Shown piece by piece: positions 6,135-44,994 of a DNA stretch of 61,291 nt (positions are counted from its first letter, which is position 1; each line of letters opens with the position of its first letter). The stretch spans positions 1 through 61,291 of the forward strand of contig JAFSAI010000044.1 of the NCBI GenBank assembly GCA_017441065.1, written 5' to 3'. A program made the translations under genes and the position numbers. Below the pieces are notes generated by a model. The model was given only the letters and a program-made list of their open reading frames with translations, ran no database searches and was not told the origin of the DNA. This DNA comes from Bacilli bacterium. Its GTDB lineage: Bacteria > Bacillota_I > Bacilli_A > RF39 > UBA660.

Positions 6135-7034
6135 TTAAATAGAACTTATTTTTATATTTTTATAATAATATTTTAATATTTCTTCATAATTGTAACCTTC
6201 TTTAGCCATTCCATTAGCACCATATTGACTCATTCCGACACCATGACCATATCCTCTAGTGGTTATTTTTATCAAATCATTCTCTTCTTCAATTGTAAAA
6301 TCTGTCGATCTTAAACCAAGTTTATTTCTAAACACTGTTCCTTTAAAAGTAGTATCATTGACTGTTATTGAATTAACCCTATTAGTATTGCTTCTAATAA
6401 TATTTGAAAAAGATAACGAAGCACATTTAATATTTAATTTTTGGCATATTTCTTCTTTCTCAAAATTTACTGTTACTTCAAAATTCTTTAAATTACTATT
6501 ATCATATGTAGATTTTACACTTTGCAAATAATCTTTATCTTCACTAAATACTAATCCCGCTTGTTCAGTATAACCATTACTCATTGCAAAATAATAAGCT
6601 TCTACTATTTCATCATCATAATACATAATCATACCCTTAGTAGCATTTACTGCATTAGCTATTTTAGTGTAATATTTATTAAATTCACTTTCCCACTTGT
6701 TTTTCATTTCTTCTATAGTTATATAACTTTGGTTAGAAACATCTGTTACCACATCATATTCTTTGCTCTCTTGTTCCATTTTATACGCTGCATAAGTTCT
6801 AGATGCTATAGCTTGGGCCTTTAGTGCTTCATCACTAAACGAAGCAGGCATTTCTGCAGCTACTACACCTATAACATACTCTTCTAAATTTAGTGAATCT
6901 ATTTCATCCGTTTTTGTATTTTTTATCTTAATATTTGGCTCACTATTAAAAAAAGTAGTATTTTTATTACTACTTATTGATACTAAAATTAAACTTAAAA
7001 TAAATACTACTATTATAAGTATTCTATTTTGCAT
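6135..7034 (-). CDS. spoIID: Stage II sporulation protein D (lytic transglycosylase)
   Basis: LEEYVIGVVAAEMPASF, EALKAQAIASRT, GYGHGVGMSQYGA. Confidence 0.96.
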   Translation of the reverse strand: MQNRILIIVVFILSLILVSISSNKNTTFFNSEPNIKIKNTKTDEIDSLNLEEYVIGVVAAEMPASFSDEALKAQAIASRTYAAYKMEQESKEYDVVTDVSNQSYITIEEMKNKWESEFNKYYTKIANAVNATKGMIMYYDDEIVEAYYFAMSNGYTEQAGLVFSEDKDYLQSVKSTYDNSNLKNFEVTVNFEKEEICQKLNIKCASLSFSNIIRSNTNRVNSITVNDTTFKGTVFRNKLGLRSTDFTIEEENDLIKITTRGYGHGVGMSQYGANGMAKEGYNYEEILKYYYKNIKISSI

Positions 7035-12017: not shown

Positions 12018-12527
12018 TTAATTATTTCGAAATTTATTAATTATTTTTGTAGCATAAAACTCATATTCAGCATTGCTTAAATTATTTTGCTCATCAAGTA
12101 AACATAACGGAGGAAATAAAACACACCACCAATTTTTACCTAATCCTTCTCCTACTGTTATTACTAAACTTTCATAATTTCCTGATTTATAAGTTATACC
12201 TTTATACTCCTTAGTTGGAAAATAATTATCTCCATAACTTATGTCATATTCTACATTATAGTCATTTAATATAGAATCAACTTTATTTATATTATTATTA
12301 ATTATATTTCTTGCTTCTTCTATATCTTTTGCATTACTAATTAACGCATACAATTCTTTTTCTACGTCATTTTTGATACTTAATTTCAATTTTTGATCTT
12401 CTATACTATCACTGTTTGCAATAACTCTAAATCTAATTGCATTATCCGGTATTAAAATATGTTCTTTTTCATTTATTCCAACTGATATTACAACTACCAT
12501 AAATAATATAATAATTATTTTCTTCAT
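12018..12527 (-). CDS. spoIIR: Stage II sporulation protein R
   Basis: AIRFRVIANSDS, FPTKEY, GKNWWCVLFPPLC. Confidence 0.97.
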   Translation of the reverse strand: MKKIIIILFMVVVISVGINEKEHILIPDNAIRFRVIANSDSIEDQKLKLSIKNDVEKELYALISNAKDIEEARNIINNNINKVDSILNDYNVEYDISYGDNYFPTKEYKGITYKSGNYESLVITVGEGLGKNWWCVLFPPLCLLDEQNNLSNAEYEFYATKIINKFRNN

Positions 12528-15532: not shown

Positions 15533-17485
15533 TTGAAAGCTTTAAAATTTTTTTCTAAACTTTGTATTTTCAGTTTTGTATCTTTTATTATTTGTTATAT
15601 TGGCATAAATATTTATGCAATGATTATACCTAATTTAAATATTACTAATAATGGAACATATTATTTATTTGATAATAAAGATACCTTAGTATATCAAGGA
15701 AGTAGTACTAGTTCATGGGTGGATTTAAAAGACATTGATGAAGATCTTATAAATGCTGTTATAGCTATTGAAGACAAAAAATTTTATAATCATTTTGGGT
15801 TTGATATCTTGAGAATTGGTAAAGCAATGATTACAAATATTCAAACTGGACATATTGTACAAGGTGCTTCAACAATTACACAACAATTAGTAAAAAATTT
15901 GTATTTAGAATTTGATAAAACTTGGGAAAGAAAAATTAAAGAAGCTTTTTTAACAATTATTACAGAATTACAATATAATAAAGAAGAAATACTAGAAGCT
16001 TATTTAAATACAATTAATTATGGAAATGGCAACTATGGAGTAAGCAATGCCAGTAAATACTATTTTAATAAAGATGTTAGTAATTTATCTCTTGAAGAAG
16101 CTATAATACTTGCAGGTATTCCTAAAAGTCCAAATAAATATAATCCTGTTTCTAACAAAGAAGAATCATTAAAAAGAGCGTCTATCGTTGCTAAAGCATT
16201 ATTAAATAATGAATTTATTAATAATGATACTTATAATAATTTAAATTTTAATAATATTGAAATTTATGGTAAAAATGATAAAAATAATTTACAAATGCTT
16301 ATGTATTATCAAGATGCTGTTTATAAAGAGTTAGAAAGTTTAGGTATTAGTAAAGAAACATTAGAAACTGGTGGACTTAAAGTTTATACAAACTTAGATA
16401 TTGAAAAACAAAGCGCTTTAGAAAAGAATATTTTAAATACTATAACTCAAGATAAAGAATTACAAGTAGCAAGTGTTATTGTTGATCCTGAGACAGGAAA
16501 AATAGAAGCTTTAACTGGTGGTATTGATTATGGTACAAGTCAGTATAATCGCGCTACTGAATCCAAAAGACAAGTTGGTTCTACAATGAAACCATTTTTA
16601 TATTATGCAGCTTTAGAAAATAACTTAACAGCATCATCTAAGTTTAAAAGCGAATATACAATATTTAATATTAACAATAAAGAATCTTATTCTCCAACAA
16701 ACTATAATGATAAATATGCTAATAAAGATATTACTATGGCTGCTGCTATTGCATTTTCTGATAATATATATGCTGTTAAAACTAATTTATTTTTGGGTGT
16801 TGATAGATTAGTAGATACTGCTAAGACTGTTGGAATTAAAGAAAATTTGAGTGCTGTACCATCACTTGCATTAGGTACAGGTGAAATTAATATTTTAGAT
16901 TATGCTACTGGATATACTACTCTAGCAAGTGGTGGTTATAAGAAAGATTTATACTTTATTAGAAAAATTGAAGATAAAGATGGAAATGTTATTTATACAA
17001 AAGAAAACAAAAAAAGTTTAGTACTAAATCCTAATTACGTTTATATCCTAAATGAATTATTAGCTAACACTTCTAGTAGTGCTTTTAAAGACTATACTAG
17101 TGCAACTGCCAGTACAATTGCTAGCAAATTAAGTAGAAAGTATTCTATAAAAACGGGAACTACTGCAAGCGACTATTGGACTGTTGGATATAATAAAGAT
17201 GATTTAATGTTAATATGGATTGGTTATGATAATAATCGAGAATTTACAAAAAGTTATGGTTATATGACAAAAAATATTTGGGCAGATACTATGGAAGAAA
17301 TCCAATCAGATATTTCTAATAATTGGTATGAAACTCCAGATAACGTAGTAGGTGTTATTCTAGATTCTGTTACTGGAGAGGTTACCAATAATGAAGAAAG
17401 GGCTGTAGTATATTATTACTTAAAAGGTAGCGAACCATTAATTAGTAGTGCATCTACTATAGATAATGAAAAAAAGAAGAACTAG
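15533..17485 (+). CDS. Class A penicillin-binding protein (PbpG/YwhE-like)
   Basis: EDKKFY.H.G, GASTITQQL, RKIKE, SxxK (STMK), SDN, KTG. Confidence 0.93.
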   Translation: MKALKFFSKLCIFSFVSFIICYIGINIYAMIIPNLNITNNGTYYLFDNKDTLVYQGSSTSSWVDLKDIDEDLINAVIAIEDKKFYNHFGFDILRIGKAMITNIQTGHIVQGASTITQQLVKNLYLEFDKTWERKIKEAFLTIITELQYNKEEILEAYLNTINYGNGNYGVSNASKYYFNKDVSNLSLEEAIILAGIPKSPNKYNPVSNKEESLKRASIVAKALLNNEFINNDTYNNLNFNNIEIYGKNDKNNLQMLMYYQDAVYKELESLGISKETLETGGLKVYTNLDIEKQSALEKNILNTITQDKELQVASVIVDPETGKIEALTGGIDYGTSQYNRATESKRQVGSTMKPFLYYAALENNLTASSKFKSEYTIFNINNKESYSPTNYNDKYANKDITMAAAIAFSDNIYAVKTNLFLGVDRLVDTAKTVGIKENLSAVPSLALGTGEINILDYATGYTTLASGGYKKDLYFIRKIEDKDGNVIYTKENKKSLVLNPNYVYILNELLANTSSSAFKDYTSATASTIASKLSRKYSIKTGTTASDYWTVGYNKDDLMLIWIGYDNNREFTKSYGYMTKNIWADTMEEIQSDISNNWYETPDNVVGVILDSVTGEVTNNEERAVVYYYLKGSEPLISSASTIDNEKKKN

Positions 17486-17498
17486 TCTTCTTTTTTTA
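17473..17498. terminator. Bidirectional terminator-like hairpin at the convergent pbp/noc stop overlap
   Basis: AAAAAGAAGA-actag-TCTTCTTTTT. Confidence 0.5.
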
Positions 17499-18486
17499 TT
17501 GTAATTGTATATTTTAATTCTTCTGTATTTTCATCTTTAATAACATTGATTTGATAATTATTATTTGTTAACTCACTAGCTAATTTATCCAAAAGATTTG
17601 TAGCTATACTCATATCTTTTTTATTATTCTCCACTGGTGCTAAAAAATCCAACATTTCTATTTCTTCTACCGGACTTGTAACTACAGTTTCTTCAATACT
17701 CATATTAGCTGATTCATCTTCTAAATAATTAAAGAATTTATTAGGAATAGATGAACTACTAGTATTTTTATTTGTAGGTATTATATCTTCAAATTGAGGA
17801 ACTGGAGGAATTTCAACAACCGGTGTAACATTTTCTACTTTTGGTGGCACTTCTGTAATTGGAATTTCCACTTTTTTATCATCCTTTTTTCTTCCTTTTA
17901 ATCTTTTATCTAATTCTCTTACTGTTAATCTTTCTTCAATAATTGTTTCTAACCACTTTTCTTGTTCTTCTAAATCATCTACTTGTAATAGACTTCTAGC
18001 ATGCCTTTCAGAAATTTTACCTTCCATTAAAGCATTTTGAACACCATTAGCTAACGATAATAGACGTAGTTTATTTGAAATTGCTGATTGGCTTAAACCC
18101 ATTTTTTTAGCTAACTCTTCTTGAGTTAAATATCCTTTATCAAGAAGTGCTTTATAAGATTTTGCTTCTTCTATCGAAGATAAGTCTCTTCTTTGAACAT
18201 TTTCTACTATTGCAACTTCCGCACTTTTTTGATCATCTAAAGCTGATATAATAGCAGGAACAGATGTTAATCCTGCTAACTTTGAAGCTTTATATCTTCT
18301 TTCTCCAGCAATAATTTCGTATTTATCTCCTAAGCGTCTTAAAACTAGGGGTTGAATAATCCCATGTTCTTTTATTGAAGCAGCTAATTCTTTTAATCCA
18401 TTTTCGTCAAAATTTAATCTTGGTTGAAAACGATTAGGAATAATATCTTCAATTGGCACATTTAAAACTTGTGATTCTGTATTCAC
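17482..18486 (-). CDS. noc: Noc-type ParB-family CTPase / DNA-binding protein
   Basis: IPNRFQPR, GERR box, Noc-type HTH (SQSAISNKLRLL...ERHAR), directly after rsmG. Confidence 0.8.
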   Translation of the reverse strand: MNTESQVLNVPIEDIIPNRFQPRLNFDENGLKELAASIKEHGIIQPLVLRRLGDKYEIIAGERRYKASKLAGLTSVPAIISALDDQKSAEVAIVENVQRRDLSSIEEAKSYKALLDKGYLTQEELAKKMGLSQSAISNKLRLLSLANGVQNALMEGKISERHARSLLQVDDLEEQEKWLETIIEERLTVRELDKRLKGRKKDDKKVEIPITEVPPKVENVTPVVEIPPVPQFEDIIPTNKNTSSSSIPNKFFNYLEDESANMSIEETVVTSPVEEIEMLDFLAPVENNKKDMSIATNLLDKLASELTNNNYQINVIKDENTEELKYTITIKKED

Positions 18487-24639: not shown

Positions 24640-24670
24640 TTCGAATTCCACCTCTTTCTTCAGCGTTATT

Positions 24671-24700
24671 ATTATAATATTATTAAGATAAGAATGTCAA
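24671..24700 (-). promoter_or_regulatory. SigA promoter for the rpmH operon
   Basis: TTGACA-18 nt-TATAAT on the minus strand. Confidence 0.75.
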
Positions 24701-24711
24701 GAAATAACGGG

Positions 24712-24963
24712 TTTTCAACATTTTATCTCTATTTTTTTATTTTAAATAACACTTTGTTTTCTAGTTTGTTGAAAACTTTTTATCTTTAAACAGTATACTT
24801 AATTATAAATATCCAATATGTAACACTTTCAACAATTCTAAAAAATTAATCAACATGTTAATAAGTTAAAAAGTTAAAACTTTTTTGTTGAAATTGTTAA
24901 TAACTTTTTGTATTATAGATTTTATCAAGAAAAATAATGTTGAAAATTGTGTTGTTATTAACA
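24712..24963. other. oriC upstream DnaA-box cluster
   Basis: About ten 9-mers of type TTWTYAACA in both orientations between rpmH and dnaA; gene orientation switches here. Confidence 0.85.
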
Positions 24964-25042
24964 ATTTTTTAAATTTTTCTTGTAATAAAAAATCATTTAA
25001 GTTAAAATGAATTTGGGATATATTTGATTGTGGGGTGAGGTA

Positions 25043-27689: not shown

Positions 27690-27699
27690 GTGAAAAAAT

Positions 27700-27713
27700 A
27701 TTTCCCGGGAAAT
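27700..27713. promoter_or_regulatory. Noc-binding sequence (NBS)
   Basis: Perfect ATTTCCCGGGAAAT palindrome. Confidence 0.85.
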
Positions 27714-27772
27714 ATTTTGACAATTTTTTTAAACTTTTTATGTTATAGTAGGCCATATTCAGGAGGATTATT

Positions 27773-28219
27773 GTGGAAAACTATATAATTAATAACAAAA
27801 CTATAGCAATATTAAAAAATAATAATAAGACAATTATTTATGATGTTGATAACATACGAGTTATTAACAAAAATATAAAGAGAATATTAGATGAAAATTG
27901 TAGTTTTTATGGTAGTAGTTTAAGCGGGAGAAAGAAAAGTGCTAAAAATATATTAAATATTCATTATAAAGTCCCAGTTGTAGTAAAAGAAGATGTTATT
28001 TTATTACAAGTTAATAACATTAGAAACAAAGAATGTTTATTTTTAGTGTTAAATAAAATTGTTGATTATAAATTAGAAAATCAAAAATTAAAAATAATAT
28101 GTATTAACAAACAAGTATTTTTAATTAATATATCAAAAAATAGTTTCGAAAAAATGTTAATTAATTCTATTAAATTAAATAACATTTTAAAATGGCAAAA
28201 ATGTGAGAATTTTGTTTAA
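27773..28219 (+). CDS. comK: ComK-family competence transcription factor (short)
   Basis: YIIN..TIAI, ILDENCSFYGSSLSGRK, YKVPVV match the ComK pattern; AGGAGG RBS. Confidence 0.8.
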   Translation: MENYIINNKTIAILKNNNKTIIYDVDNIRVINKNIKRILDENCSFYGSSLSGRKKSAKNILNIHYKVPVVVKEDVILLQVNNIRNKECLFLVLNKIVDYKLENQKLKIICINKQVFLINISKNSFEKMLINSIKLNNILKWQKCENFV

Positions 28220-31338: not shown

Positions 31339-33783
31339 ATGGATAAAGATAAATTAACAGTAAATAATATTGTAGATGAAATTGAAAAATCCTTTTTAGA
31401 TTATTCCATGAGTGTAATTGTATCTCGTGCTTTACCAGATTTAAGAGACGGTTTAAAACCTGTTCATAGAAGAATTTTATGGTCAATGTATGAGTCTGGT
31501 TATACTCCAGATAAACCACACAAAAAATCAGCTCGTATAGTTGGGGATGTTATGGGTAAATATCACCCACATGGAGATTCAAGTATATATGAAGCAATGG
31601 TTCGTATGGCTCAAGATTTTAGCTATAGAAATGTTTTAGTAGATGGTCACGGAAACTTTGGTAATATTGCTGGAGCTGGAGCTGCAGCTATGCGTTATAC
31701 AGAATCAAGACTTGCTAAAATTTCTTTAGAATTATTAAGAGATATTAACAAAGATACAGTAAATTTCATTCCAAACTTTGATGAATCTGAAAAAGAACCT
31801 GAAATATTGCCTTCTAGATTTCCTAATATTCTTGTTAATGGAACAATGGGAATTGCCGTAGGTATGGCTACAAATATACCTCCACATAATTTAGGAGAAG
31901 TAATTGATGGATGTGTAGCGTATATTGATAATCCGGATATAGATGTTGATGGATTAATGCAACATATTAAAGGTCCAGATTTTCCAACTGGTGGTTTAAT
32001 ATTAGGTAATAGTGGTATTAAAAAGGCTTATGAAACAGGTCGTGGTAGTATTACTATTAGAAGTAAAGCGACTATTGAAGAAAAAGATGGTAAACATTAC
32101 ATAATTGTAGATGAAGTTCCATATGGTGTAAATGTTTCTGATTTAAAAAATAAAGTTGCAGAACTTGTACATAATAAGGTAATTGAAGGAATTGCGGATT
32201 ATCATACAGACTTAAAAAATGGTATTAAAATTACTATAACTTTAAAGAAAGATGCTAATCCACAAGTTGTTCTTAACAATTTGTATAAACACACTCAATT
32301 TCAAGTAAATTACGGAATTATATTCCTAATGATAGATAATAAGGTACCTAGAACTTTAGGTTTAAAAGATATAATCTCTAAATACATTAATTATCAAGAA
32401 GAAGTTATTATAAGACGTACTAGATTTGAATTAGATAAAGCAGAAAAAAGAGTTCATATTCTAGAAGGCTATAAGATTGCTTTAGACAACATAGATGAAG
32501 TTATTAAAATTATTAAAGAATCAGAAACAGATTTATTAGCTAAAGAAAAACTAATGTCAAAATTTGGATTTAGTGAAATTCAAGCTGATAGTATTTTAGA
32601 ATTAAAATTACGTCGATTAACAGGTCTAGAACGAAATAAAATCGAAGAAGAATTAAAAGAATTACTTGCTAAAATTCAAGATTATAGAGCAATTCTTGCT
32701 TCTAGAGAAAGAATTTTGGAAATAATAAAAACAGAATTACTAGAAATTAAAGATAAATACGGTGATGATCGTCGTACTAAAATTGATATGACTGCAGTTG
32801 AATACATTGAAGATGAATCTTTAATTCCTGAAGAAGATGTTATGGTTGTGTTAACTAATAAGGGCTATATTAAGAGAACAACAAATGATACATTTAAAGT
32901 TCAAAATCGAGGAGGTGTTGGTGTTAAAGGTTTAACAACAAACGATGAAGATTATGTTGAACATTTAATTAACTTATCAACTCATGATTATATTATGTTC
33001 TTTACTAATAAAGGTAAAGTTTACCGTATAAAAGGTTATGAAATACCCGAATTTAGTCGTCAATCTAAAGGAATACCAGTAATTAATTTACTTCAAATAG
33101 AAAAAGATGAAAGAATTAATTCAGTTGTTAAAATCAATAAAAATGATGAATATAAATACTTATTATTCGCCACTAAAAAAGGTGTTGTTAAAAAGACTTT
33201 ATTAACTGAATTTGAAAATATTAGAACATCTGGTAAATTATGTATTAGTTTAAATGAAAATGATGAATTATTAGATGTTAAAAAGACTAATGGCGACAAT
33301 ATTATCCTGTTAGGTAGTGATAATGGTAGAATGGTAAAATTTGATGAGAATGAAATCAGAGCCATGGGTAGAACTGCTACTGGTGTAAGAGGAATTAACC
33401 TAGAAGGTGGAAATTGTATTTGTTGTGAAGTTGTTAATGACGATTCAACAATATTATTAGTTACAGAAAAAGGTTACGGAAAACGAACAGAAGTTCGTGA
33501 ATTCAGACAAACAAAACGTGGAAGTAAAGGTGTTTTAGCTCTTAATATCACAGAAAAGAATGGAACTTTGGTATCTGCTAAGTTAGTAGAAAATGATAAG
33601 GATGTAATAATCATGAGTAATGCTGGTATTACAATAAAACTACCAGTTGATCAAATTTCTTTATTAGGAAGAGTTACACAAGGACTTAGATTAATCTCAT
33701 TAAGAGATAATCAAACTGTTGCAACAATTAGTGTTGTTGATAAAATTGAAGTTGATTCAGAGGAATCAAGTTCTGAAAAATAA
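31339..33783 (+). CDS. gyrA: DNA gyrase subunit A
   Basis: [18 protein letters not shown], GyrA-box-like QNRGGVG. Confidence 0.98.
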
Positions 33784-33796
33784 TAAATAAAAAAAT

Positions 33797-33810
33797 ATTT
33801 CCCAGGAAAT
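33797..33810. promoter_or_regulatory. NBS (one mismatch) embedded in the gyrA terminator-like hairpin
   Basis: ATTTCCCAGGAAAT with extended A/T inverted flanks. Confidence 0.75.
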
Positions 33811-33879
33811 ATTTTTTTTATTTGTATTAAACAATTTTTCTAAAGGCATCAATATTTTTATTTTAAAACACAGGAAATT

Positions 33880-33893
33880 ATTTCCCGGGAAAT
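33880..33893. promoter_or_regulatory. NBS
   Basis: ATTTCCCGGGAAAT. Confidence 0.85.
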
Positions 33894-33909
33894 AATTTTG
33901 AGTGTTGAA

Positions 33910-33925
33910 AGTTTCACGTGAAACA
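33910..33925. promoter_or_regulatory. parS site
   Basis: AGTTTCACGTGAAACA (15/16 match to TGTTTCACGTGAAACA). Confidence 0.9.
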
Positions 33926-34239
33926 TTTTTTATGTTGAAAACTTATGTCTTTTTAACAAAATTATTAAAAATTGCCGGCAAAATAAAAAATTTATTAATA
34001 AACCAATTATTTATTTTGAATAAAATAAACATTAAAGATAAAAAATATGTTTGTGAAAATCTTACTAGATATGGCCTTAAATCGCTGGTGATTCATCGCA
34101 AAGATGAAGAATTGTTTGTTTTTGCATTTTTATTTTTGAAAAAACAAAGAAATCCTTTATTTTTCTTAAATAGATAAATTATCCTATTACAACAATTAAA
34201 TATGAGTGTTTAAAACGAAACTAATTATTTTAAATAAAT

Positions 34240-34253
34240 ATTTCCCGGGAAAT
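34240..34253. promoter_or_regulatory. NBS
   Basis: ATTTCCCGGGAAAT. Confidence 0.85.
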
Positions 34254-34274
34254 AAAAAATGTTGAAAATTATGA

Positions 34275-34290
34275 TGTTTCACGTGAAACT
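34275..34290. promoter_or_regulatory. parS site
   Basis: TGTTTCACGTGAAACT (15/16 match). Confidence 0.9.
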
Positions 34291-34348
34291 AATTCAAAAA
34301 CATAAAAATAAGCTTATTTTGATGTCAAAAAACAAAAAATGGATAATT

Positions 34349-34362
34349 ATTTCCCGGGAAAT
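34349..34362. promoter_or_regulatory. NBS
   Basis: ATTTCCCGGGAAAT. Confidence 0.85.
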
Positions 34363-34408
34363 ATCTAAATGAATTGAATTATAAAAACAAATATGCTATT
34401 ATTTTTAT

Positions 34409-34479
34409 GCACAACAAATATATCGTAAACTGGTCAGAGTTGGAAGACAGCAGCCACATCGTTCACTATTTGTGTGTGC
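34409..34479 (+). ncRNA. ffs: Small (4.5S-type) SRP RNA
   Basis: Domain IV GGTCAGAGTT-GGAA-GACAGCAGCC within a GCAC..CAAATA/TATTTG..GTGC closing stem, then a T-run; promoter TTGAAT-17-TATTAT (34374-34402); near tadA-dnaX. Confidence 0.85.
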
Positions 34480-34499
34480 TTTTTTTATGAGGTTATATT

Positions 34500-44286: not shown

Positions 44287-44323
44287 TAAAAAAAACAACT
44301 TGTGCTAAACTAAATTTAATTAA

Positions 44324-44514
44324 CGGAGAATAAGCATAAAAATTGTGAAATTTTAAAGAGAGTTAATGGTTGGTGTAAATTAACAAAGGAAGCAATCTAG
44401 TATGGGCTTAGGAGTTAAATCGGTGATGATCGTTAAAACTAAGAGTGTATGATTAATTTCATAAATAAAGGTGGTACCGCGGATATATCCGTCCTTTGTT
44501 TATGAAATTTTTTT
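44324..44514 (+). promoter_or_regulatory. T-box leader, probable Met specifier
   Basis: AGAGA and GGTGTAA stem I motifs, ATG at 44402-44404 in the specifier position, T-box AAAGGTGGTACCGCG, 3' strand CCGTCCTTT. Confidence 0.9.
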
Positions 44515-44529
44515 ATTGTAAGGAGTATT

Positions 44530-44994
44530 ATGAAAGATATAGTATTGTTATTAAAAAAGAAAAATAAAACTATTTCAACTATGGAATCATGTACCGGTGG
44601 AGGTGTTGCTAATGCAATTACAAACATTGAAGGTGCCAGTGAAGTTTTAAAATATTCAGCAGTAACTTACTCTAATGAATTTAAAATAAAAATGGGAGTT
44701 AGTAGTGAAGTTATAGATAAGTATTCTGTATATAGTATGGAAACTGCTATGGAAATGAGTAAAGCTATATCTGAATTTACTAATTCATCAATAGGAATAG
44801 GTATTACTGGTAAACTTAATAGAGTAGATATTAATAATCCTTATGGTGAAGATAATATAGTTTATATAAGTGTTTATAATAGAGAAGAAAATAAATACTA
44901 TAATAAAGAATTAAAAGTAGATAAATCATCACGTAAAGAGAATAAAGAATTAGTTATTAATGAAATTATTAATATGTTAAAAGATATAATTTAA
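44530..44994 (+). CDS. CinA C-terminal / PncC family (NMN deamidase)
   Basis: MESCTGG, GASEV, VTYSN..K, GITG. Confidence 0.88.
   Translation: MKDIVLLLKKKNKTISTMESCTGGGVANAITNIEGASEVLKYSAVTYSNEFKIKMGVSSEVIDKYSVYSMETAMEMSKAISEFTNSSIGIGITGKLNRVDINNPYGEDNIVYISVYNREENKYYNKELKVDKSSRKENKELVINEIINMLKDII

Follow-up and report, generated by a model that had tools for sequence, protein, structure and literature searches.

Why should the predicted loading sites of two different ParB-family proteins lie interleaved in one short spacer beside a replication origin? The question is raised by a 61,291-nucleotide stretch of DNA from a Bacilli bacterium (GTDB lineage Bacteria; Bacillota_I; Bacilli_A; RF39; UBA660), positions 1 to 61,291 of contig JAFSAI010000044.1 of assembly GCA_017441065.1, which we call the window (contig C43 in our numbering). 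Between gyrA (31339..33783, plus strand) and ffs, the gene of the small signal recognition particle RNA (34403..34488, plus strand, by Rfam), the window has a 619-bp spacer that holds four Noc-binding sites (NBS; three exact, one with a single mismatch) and two parS sites. Our analysis suggests that this spacer serves as the chromosome's single origin-proximal, composite centromere and that Noc would be an origin-restricted factor in this organism, a reading to which we give a probability of about 0.65. We set out below the evidence for this reading, the points that weigh against it, and the alternatives.

Two kinds of site in the gyrA-ffs spacer

We used the consensus sequences as printed in a passage of PMC7383237, a 16-mer, TATTTCCCGGGAAATA, for NBS and a 16-bp palindrome, TGTTTCACGTGAAACA, for parS. 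The motif scan places NBS 1 (TATTTCCCAGGAAATA, one mismatch, 33796..33811) just after the gyrA stop codon, followed by NBS 2 (33879..33894), parS 1 (AGTTTCACGTGAAACA, 33910..33925), NBS 3 (34239..34254), parS 2 (TGTTTCACGTGAAACT, 34275..34290) and NBS 4 (34348..34363), the last lying 40 bp upstream of ffs. NBS 2, 3 and 4 match the 16-bp consensus exactly, both parS sites match theirs at 15 of 16 positions, and from one unit to the next the distance is 360 bp between NBS and 365 bp between parS. The initial annotation of this DNA had listed these sites and their 360-365 bp spacing, together with three DnaA-box-like 9-mers to which we come below, and had called the spacer the longest gene-free stretch of the window; all the listed elements are present, and the spacer is indeed the window's largest gap between open reading frames (ORFs) of at least 90 amino acids.

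Outside this neighbourhood such sites are missing from the assembly, which comprises 1.21 Mb at 25.9% G+C in 44 contigs and is 95% complete; the counts given here cover this assembled DNA, and further sites are possible in the missing part. When up to one mismatch is allowed, the whole assembly contains four exact NBS and one with a mismatch, all on the same contig and within 6.7 kb. The sole NBS outside the spacer is NBS 5 (27699..27714, exact), which lies between dnaN and a comK-like gene about 6 kb from the spacer sites. For parS, allowing up to two mismatches, we find two sites, both in the gyrA-ffs spacer. The hexamer CCCGGG itself occurs only five times in the assembly, and four of these occurrences are NBS cores. 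Simple arithmetic from the G+C content gives an expectation of about 0.002 exact NBS 14-mers per 1.21 Mb, and a control with the reversed pattern gave no match in any genome searched. The cluster of sites in the spacer is thus far beyond chance. The whole-genome scan for both palindromes had been suggested as a check on the annotation, and its outcome is that NBS are not dense genome-wide.

The position of the origin follows from three features taken together. A cluster of five TGTTGAAA DnaA boxes lies at 24641..25027 between rpmH and dnaA, the cumulative GC skew has its minimum at 24-25 kb, and the gene orientation switches here, so that we place oriC at 24.6-26.5 kb, about 9 kb to the left of the spacer.

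Conservation of the mixed array

Of 24 same-genus genomes, 23 have exact NBS, with 1-6 copies each, and these are confined to about 12 kb of one contig in all but a single genome (G016), where they are on two contigs. We fetched the region from 23 same-genus genomes, which gave 21 complete gyrA-ffs spacers, one partial spacer and one locus that ends before the spacer. All 21 complete spacers and the partial one hold both kinds of site, 1-7 NBS and 2-6 parS, and the relatives' parS sites in the same spacer mostly match the consensus at 16 of 16 positions. An extra NBS after dnaN is present in 10 of the 19 same-genus loci that include this junction, and one just after recR in 8 of 21; the window has none at the latter place.

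Beyond the genus we examined 19 genomes of other genera, taken from the top of the family's NBS listing rather than at random, whose gyrA is 61-73% identical to that of the window. The same spacer carries a mixed array in 11 of them and parS only, with NBS nearby, in four; the other four loci are incomplete or otherwise different. Exact tight NBS-parS dyads turn up in 27 of 150 other genera, each represented by one genome, and in none under the reversed control. Over the family, exact NBS are found in 104 of 119 genomes, with 1-10 copies each that lie close together in the loci we fetched, while for exact parS the count is 34 of 60. In nearly every case the parS sites form a single tight array, although contig ends cut through some of these arrays. 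Outside the family, only 5 of 133 genomes of the class contain an exact NBS. Conservation of the gyrA-ffs spacer architecture was the other check that had been suggested, and the answer is that the mixed array is kept across the genus and in much of the family.

Compared with the nearest relative, 92 of 96 site positions are identical, against 336 of 522 in the remainder of the spacer. Moreover, the 244 sites from 46 sources that fit a common scaffold divide into 130 pure NBS and 114 pure parS, with no hybrid among them. We read this footprint, together with the lack of hybrids, as signs of selection on the sites. A recent tandem duplication as the origin of the 360-bp units was considered and rejected, since a repeat search found no in-register similarity beyond the sites; because the units are alike in register only there, the NBS/parS pattern appears to have been maintained rather than recently copied.

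Some relatives from other genera place their NBS differently. Eight loci (L128, L129, L130, L134, L136, L137, L138 and L141) have an exact NBS within the coding sequence of dnaX, each at a similar position. In three more (L131, L132 and L133, from genomes G084 and G046) three or four NBS stand in tandem directly after gyrA, spaced by 66-74 bp, and the assemblies break there.

Two ParB-family readers

The genome encodes two ParB paralogues. The first, a 334-residue protein of the Noc clade, is encoded on the minus strand at 17482..18486, next to rsmG and 16 kb from the spacer. It has a GERRYK motif for cytidine triphosphate (CTP) and a C-terminal domain of the dimerisation type. Among PDB entries it matches Noc structures best, and it aligns to the Nocs of B. 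subtilis and Geobacillus (7ol9, 7nfu) without gaps, the gapless stretch running through the recognition helix. The four specificity positions described in PMC7383237 are occupied by Q, K, S and R. According to a passage in that paper, Q173, R201 and one lysine at either 179 or 184 suffice for NBS specificity; the corresponding residues Q133, R161 and K139 are invariant, or nearly so, among 44 orthologues.

The second paralogue is a Spo0J/ParB encoded on another contig (C7:72491-73381), with R, L, K and S at the specificity positions (R at 173). It has an N-terminal KKALGKGLEQL stretch, a ParA-like ATPase is encoded directly upstream, and the resulting soj-spo0J pair lies near ychF and rpsF-ssb-rpsR; noc and soj-spo0J are therefore on different contigs. 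A maximum-likelihood tree built from 36 sequences separates the R-type ParBs from the Q-type Nocs with support of 100/100. The family's Noc forms one clade (100/99) on the Noc side of this split, among proteins that pass the NCBIfam cut-off for Noc. The initial annotation had proposed from the sites that two ParB-family paralogues load at this spacer near the origin. The proposal gains from these two proteins, whose specificity residues fit the sites, and the further suggestions of co-loading, SMC loading and a role in sporulation are conjectural.

The Noc-clade protein had also been described as helix-less. For the N-terminus this description stands. The protein starts 16 residues before PNRFQPR and its open frame extends only two more codons upstream, which leads us to conclude that the N-terminal amphipathic helix is absent; the N-terminus is short in all 70 orthologous loci that gave an ORF. 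The linker between the two domains fits the description less well. It contains a motif, IPNKFFNYLEDE, at about residues 247-258, of which the core PNKFFNFLE recurs in 58 of 71 orthologues within an otherwise variable linker, and this conserved motif resembles the N-terminal helix of related Nocs of the class (VFSFFSKDD, FRVFNIFLRDD, ASLFNIL). In the AlphaFold model, residues 1-203 and the C-terminal domain are confidently predicted and the linker is disordered.

Further along the linker there is a second conserved motif, EIEMLDF, at about residues 275-281, which a loose pattern finds in 26 of 71 orthologues and whose F281 is nearly invariant in the 44-sequence alignment. Short N-termini with no helix are also seen in Noc-type proteins with Q..K..R residues from another family of the class (L151, L152, L155 and L156), so the loss or absence of the N-terminal helix is not confined to the family studied here.

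As to other proteins that could bear on chromosome segregation and division, DivIVA and SMC are present in the assembly, and MinC and MinD were not found in it at its 95% completeness.

A probable composite, origin-proximal centromere

How would such an array work? From the sites and the residues of their readers we infer the following scheme of binding, spreading, membrane or partner contact, and physiological role. The parS sites would load the Spo0J/ParB clamp encoded on contig C7, acting with ParA/Soj. The NBS, which are interleaved with parS and bracket them, would load a second CTP clamp, that of the Noc clade. The two kinds of clamp would nucleate at neighbouring sites, some 9 kb away from oriC, and slide along a shared origin-proximal domain, and Noc in this family would therefore mark the origin region only and not two-thirds of the chromosome. 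Through its conserved linker motif Noc may then connect this domain with the membrane, or with a partner in division or replication, and the outcome could be an origin-specific form of nucleoid occlusion or of anchoring in a cell for which MinCD was not found. To this design the three DnaA-box-like 9-mers would be a lineage-specific addition.

Several points weigh against the scheme. The whole case rests on sequence. Four of the 19 other-genus spacers carry parS only, so that interleaving is common but not obligatory, and 123 of the 150 other genera have no exact tight dyad. The distance between NBS and parS varies between genera (29, 35, 59-60 or 95-97 bp), which argues against a fixed contact between Noc and Spo0J at their nucleation sites. 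The Noc-clade protein scores 270.7 bits against TIGR04285, below the NCBIfam cut-off of 315, its match spanning model positions 1-200 only. AlphaFold renders the linker motif as low-confidence coil (predicted local distance difference test score about 50) rather than helix, and acidic residues come after the motif. NBS 1 also resembles a terminator of gyrA. Finally, the DNA that the assembly lacks could contain MinCD or additional sites.

If the two proteins do bind as their residues predict, there are several consequences. Noc can act as an origin-specific factor, and the family offers a natural system for asking how two CTP clamps that cannot pass each other share one DNA stretch. Moreover, the evolution of NBS from parS, which has been examined in vitro according to a passage in PMC7383237, would become testable in real genomes. 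We may even ask whether the family still shows, or has arrived at anew, an early step by which Noc-NBS emerged from ParB-parS. NBS would then have arisen by a two-base change in centromeric copies of parS, Noc would at first have been a second clamp on the centromere and origin, its membrane or partner motif being in the linker, and the scattering of sites and the N-terminal helix would have come later, in the Bacillus/Staphylococcus lineages; an origin-restricted Noc would tie division or membrane contacts to segregated origins in cells for which MinCD was not found. We offer this history as a speculation and think it rather doubtful, but if true it would mean a distinct way to couple segregation, division and perhaps initiation. 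There is also a caution for annotation, since NCBI names one such protein (P0047) only 'ParB/RepB/Spo0J family partition protein'.

Alternative explanations

One alternative is that the locus is a hub of replication control. Noc would cover oriC and restrain initiation as in S. aureus, and the three DnaA boxes would titrate DnaA or allow a hand-over near Soj/Spo0J. The distances are suitable, the NBS being 1.2 kb and about 7-8 kb away from the spacer between dnaA and dnaN; in S. aureus, according to a passage in PMC5540599, Noc enrichment spans 8-10 kb around its sites and Noc limits initiation.

This alternative also draws on the 9-mers, one TGTTGAAAG at 33903..33911, which overlaps the first two bases of parS 1, and two TGTTGAAAA at 33933..33941 and 34260..34268, all on the plus strand. 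All three are of the type TGTTGAAA[AG], and the statement that this type dominates oriC is borne out, since TGTTGAAA has five copies between rpmH and dnaA and one between dnaA and dnaN. Their number in the spacer is statistically unusual. Against the three observed, Markov shuffles contain 0.11 on average and none of 5000 shuffles reached three, and only three loci genome-wide have three TGTTGAAA in 619 bp. The 9-mers are, furthermore, 25/25 identical in the nearest relative. The third locus with three boxes, after oriC and the spacer, is on contig C17 around 17001. In two other genera a canonical TTATCCACA can be seen by eye between NBS and parS (G193:C21:21591-21633 and G408:C36:74306-74345), a placement that would suit the hub.

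Within the genus, however, the boxes do not persist. The spacer has no TGTTGAAA in any of the seven other same-genus genomes for which we had oriC in hand, six of which do use this box in oriC, and DnaA boxes occur sporadically in 3 of 21 same-genus spacers. The order NBS-DnaA box-parS, which the initial annotation took to be a repeated feature worth seeking in relatives, is kept in the nearest relative only, and we reject it as a general order for the genus. Given this absence and sporadic occurrence we treat the three 9-mers as a lineage-specific, possibly functional addition and not as part of the conserved design, and we regard a replication-control hub as an unlikely explanation of the locus.

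A second alternative assigns the two clamps to different territories. Noc clamps loaded at NBS would fence in the ParB/Spo0J domain, given that two kinds of clamp cannot pass each other, and the NBS at the edges would limit how far ParB slides, at one edge into gyrBA and towards oriC, at the opposite edge into ffs-dnaX. The order of sites lends itself to this idea. Next to gyrA comes an NBS, both in the window and in 21 of 21 same-genus spacers. At the ffs end the outermost site is an NBS in 13 of these spacers and a parS in the other eight, and some of these eight genomes have an NBS just after recR. Pairs of NBS and parS offset by 22-35 bp, start to start, recur and are often mirrored at the two ends of the spacer, in the manner NBS-parS ... 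parS-NBS. Yet many arrays are interleaved rather than bracketed (for example L025, L039 and L126), and the NBS after dnaN, like those inside dnaX in other genera, flank no parS. A clamp that slides off its loading site would make a poor fixed barrier (compare a passage in PMC8429893), and the conservation of the linker motif speaks for an effector role that goes further than blocking. We consider it improbable that the NBS serve mainly as a boundary.

The weakest alternative needs no protein at all, the palindromes being terminators, repetitive extragenic palindromic (REP)-like repeats or chance, with a coincidental likeness to NBS and parS. NBS 1, with its A7/T8 flanks, does form a terminator-like hairpin just after the gyrA stop codon (RNA fold of 33784-33826: -11.2 kcal/mol, z -4.8, U8 tail), although its stem is AT-rich and a consensus terminator scan made no plus-strand call there; NBS 2 with its flanks also folds better than shuffles (z -3.9), and the scan's one terminator-like site is a minus-strand call at NBS 2. 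But NBS 3, NBS 4 and parS 1 fold no better than shuffles, the consensus is matched at 14/14 and 15-16/16 positions where about 0.002 matches are expected by chance, the sites are exclusive to the locus and conserved while their flanks diverge, no hybrid occurs among 244 sites, and the genome encodes the two cognate proteins with specificity residues that fit, so that this explanation is very hard to credit.

The locus and its surroundings

Downstream of ffs come tadA, dnaX, ybaB and recR. Upstream of the spacer lie mnmE, mnmG and rsmG, with the ParB-family gene on the minus strand, and around the strand switch are rpmH, dnaA, dnaN, the comK-like gene, recF and gyrB. An Rfam scan of the spacer returned nothing apart from ffs.

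Other possible occupants of the spacer were tried and set aside. A 91-residue ORF at 33902-34177 was considered as a hidden gene; it has no Pfam match and no tblastn hit in 25 related loci, and it sits in the spacer's least conserved part. A search for a third conserved motif, by k-mer enrichment over 22 spacers with NBS and parS masked, yielded only the 3' end of gyrA and the promoter and 5' end of ffs. Mid-spacer there is a GC-rich palindrome, TTGCCGGCAA (33972-33981), which is absent from 21 related spacers and has one other copy in the genome, and a 27-nucleotide block, TTTATTTTTCTTAAATAGATAAATTAT (34156-34182), is identical in the nearest relative amid a poorly conserved stretch.

Elsewhere in the window, the ComK-family gene between dnaN and recF (27773-28219; Pfam 8.9e-20) is kept in the same-genus loci that span dnaN-recF and, more weakly, in some other genera. 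A T-box leader (44317-44499; Rfam, 99 bits) lies upstream of an ORF at 44530. Genes for SpoIID and SpoIIR (spoIID and spoIIR; 6135-7034 and 12018-12527) are present in this 1.2-Mb genome.

Comparison with known systems

The array, read as a composite centromere with an origin-restricted Noc, would be a variation on known systems, shared family-wide. We have here a family of small-genome gut Bacilli in which NBS are kept at the centromere only, interleaved with parS and without hybrids, next to a differently built Noc and with no MinCD found. The initial annotation knew of no interleaved array of this kind, and our full-text literature searches likewise found no description of one. The genomes that we compared all come from the same class, and the figures for Bacillus and Staphylococcus are those of the papers cited.

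Clusters of DnaA boxes outside oriC are familiar from the DnaA-box clusters (DBCs) of B. subtilis and from datA of E. coli. Like these, the spacer has an intergenic group of oriC-type 9-mers, three in 365 bp, near oriC and conserved in the nearest relative. Unlike them, it has only three boxes, which share one orientation, are not kept in the genus, and are embedded between NBS and parS.

In B. subtilis sporulation, RacA-ram is an origin-proximal set of sites. A further such set in B. subtilis sporulation is that of RefZ and its binding motif, RBM (excerpted text of 10.1101/459685). Sites of this kind serve to position the origin or the septum. Our system resembles both in that its sites are confined to the origin region and in that spoIIR, spoIID and DivIVA are present in the genome, and it differs from them in its protein families and motifs.

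In ParABS centromeres, as passages in PMC7333895 and PMC7053999 describe, origin-proximal parS clusters load ParB-CTP clamps and SMC. The spacer is like them in having consensus parS near oriC, with ParA and ParB encoded, SMC present, and one tight array per genome throughout the family. It is unlike them in that a second, paralogous clamp has its predicted loading sites in the same array, the two site sets being separate in the model organisms.

There remains Noc-NBS itself. Noc is a ParB paralogue that acquired a new DNA site, changed at two bases, together with a membrane helix and chromosome-wide sites, and so became a nucleoid-occlusion factor. The Noc-NBS system of nucleoid occlusion was reportedly the subject of Wu et al. 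in 2009. With the Noc-NBS of B. subtilis and S. aureus our system has in common the 16-bp NBS consensus, a Noc-clade gene next to rsmG/gidB, NBS-type specificity residues, an intact GERRxR CTP motif and a C-terminal domain of the dimerisation type.

The differences concern where the sites are and how the protein is built. In B. subtilis, NBS are 'scattered around the chromosome' in the words of a passage in PMC8429893, and for S. aureus an excerpt of PMC5540599 gives about 41 Noc loci over +/-700 kb. Canonical Nocs within the class were taken from a genome search, as a search for homologous proteins gave near relatives only; five closed genomes with a canonical-type Noc have 5, 8, 6, 2 and 3 NBS (up to one mismatch), scattered over 2-3 Mb, and their Noc lies above the NCBIfam cut-off in four, with the fifth (G247) scoring 303.8, just below 315. 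Here, by contrast, five sites lie within 6.7 kb at oriC rather than over the origin-proximal half to two-thirds of the chromosome, they are interleaved with parS, and the protein falls below the cut-off. The N-terminal amphipathic helix of Noc is highly conserved and necessary for function, as a passage in PMC4331003 has it; in the protein described here this helix is missing, and a similar motif stands in the linker.

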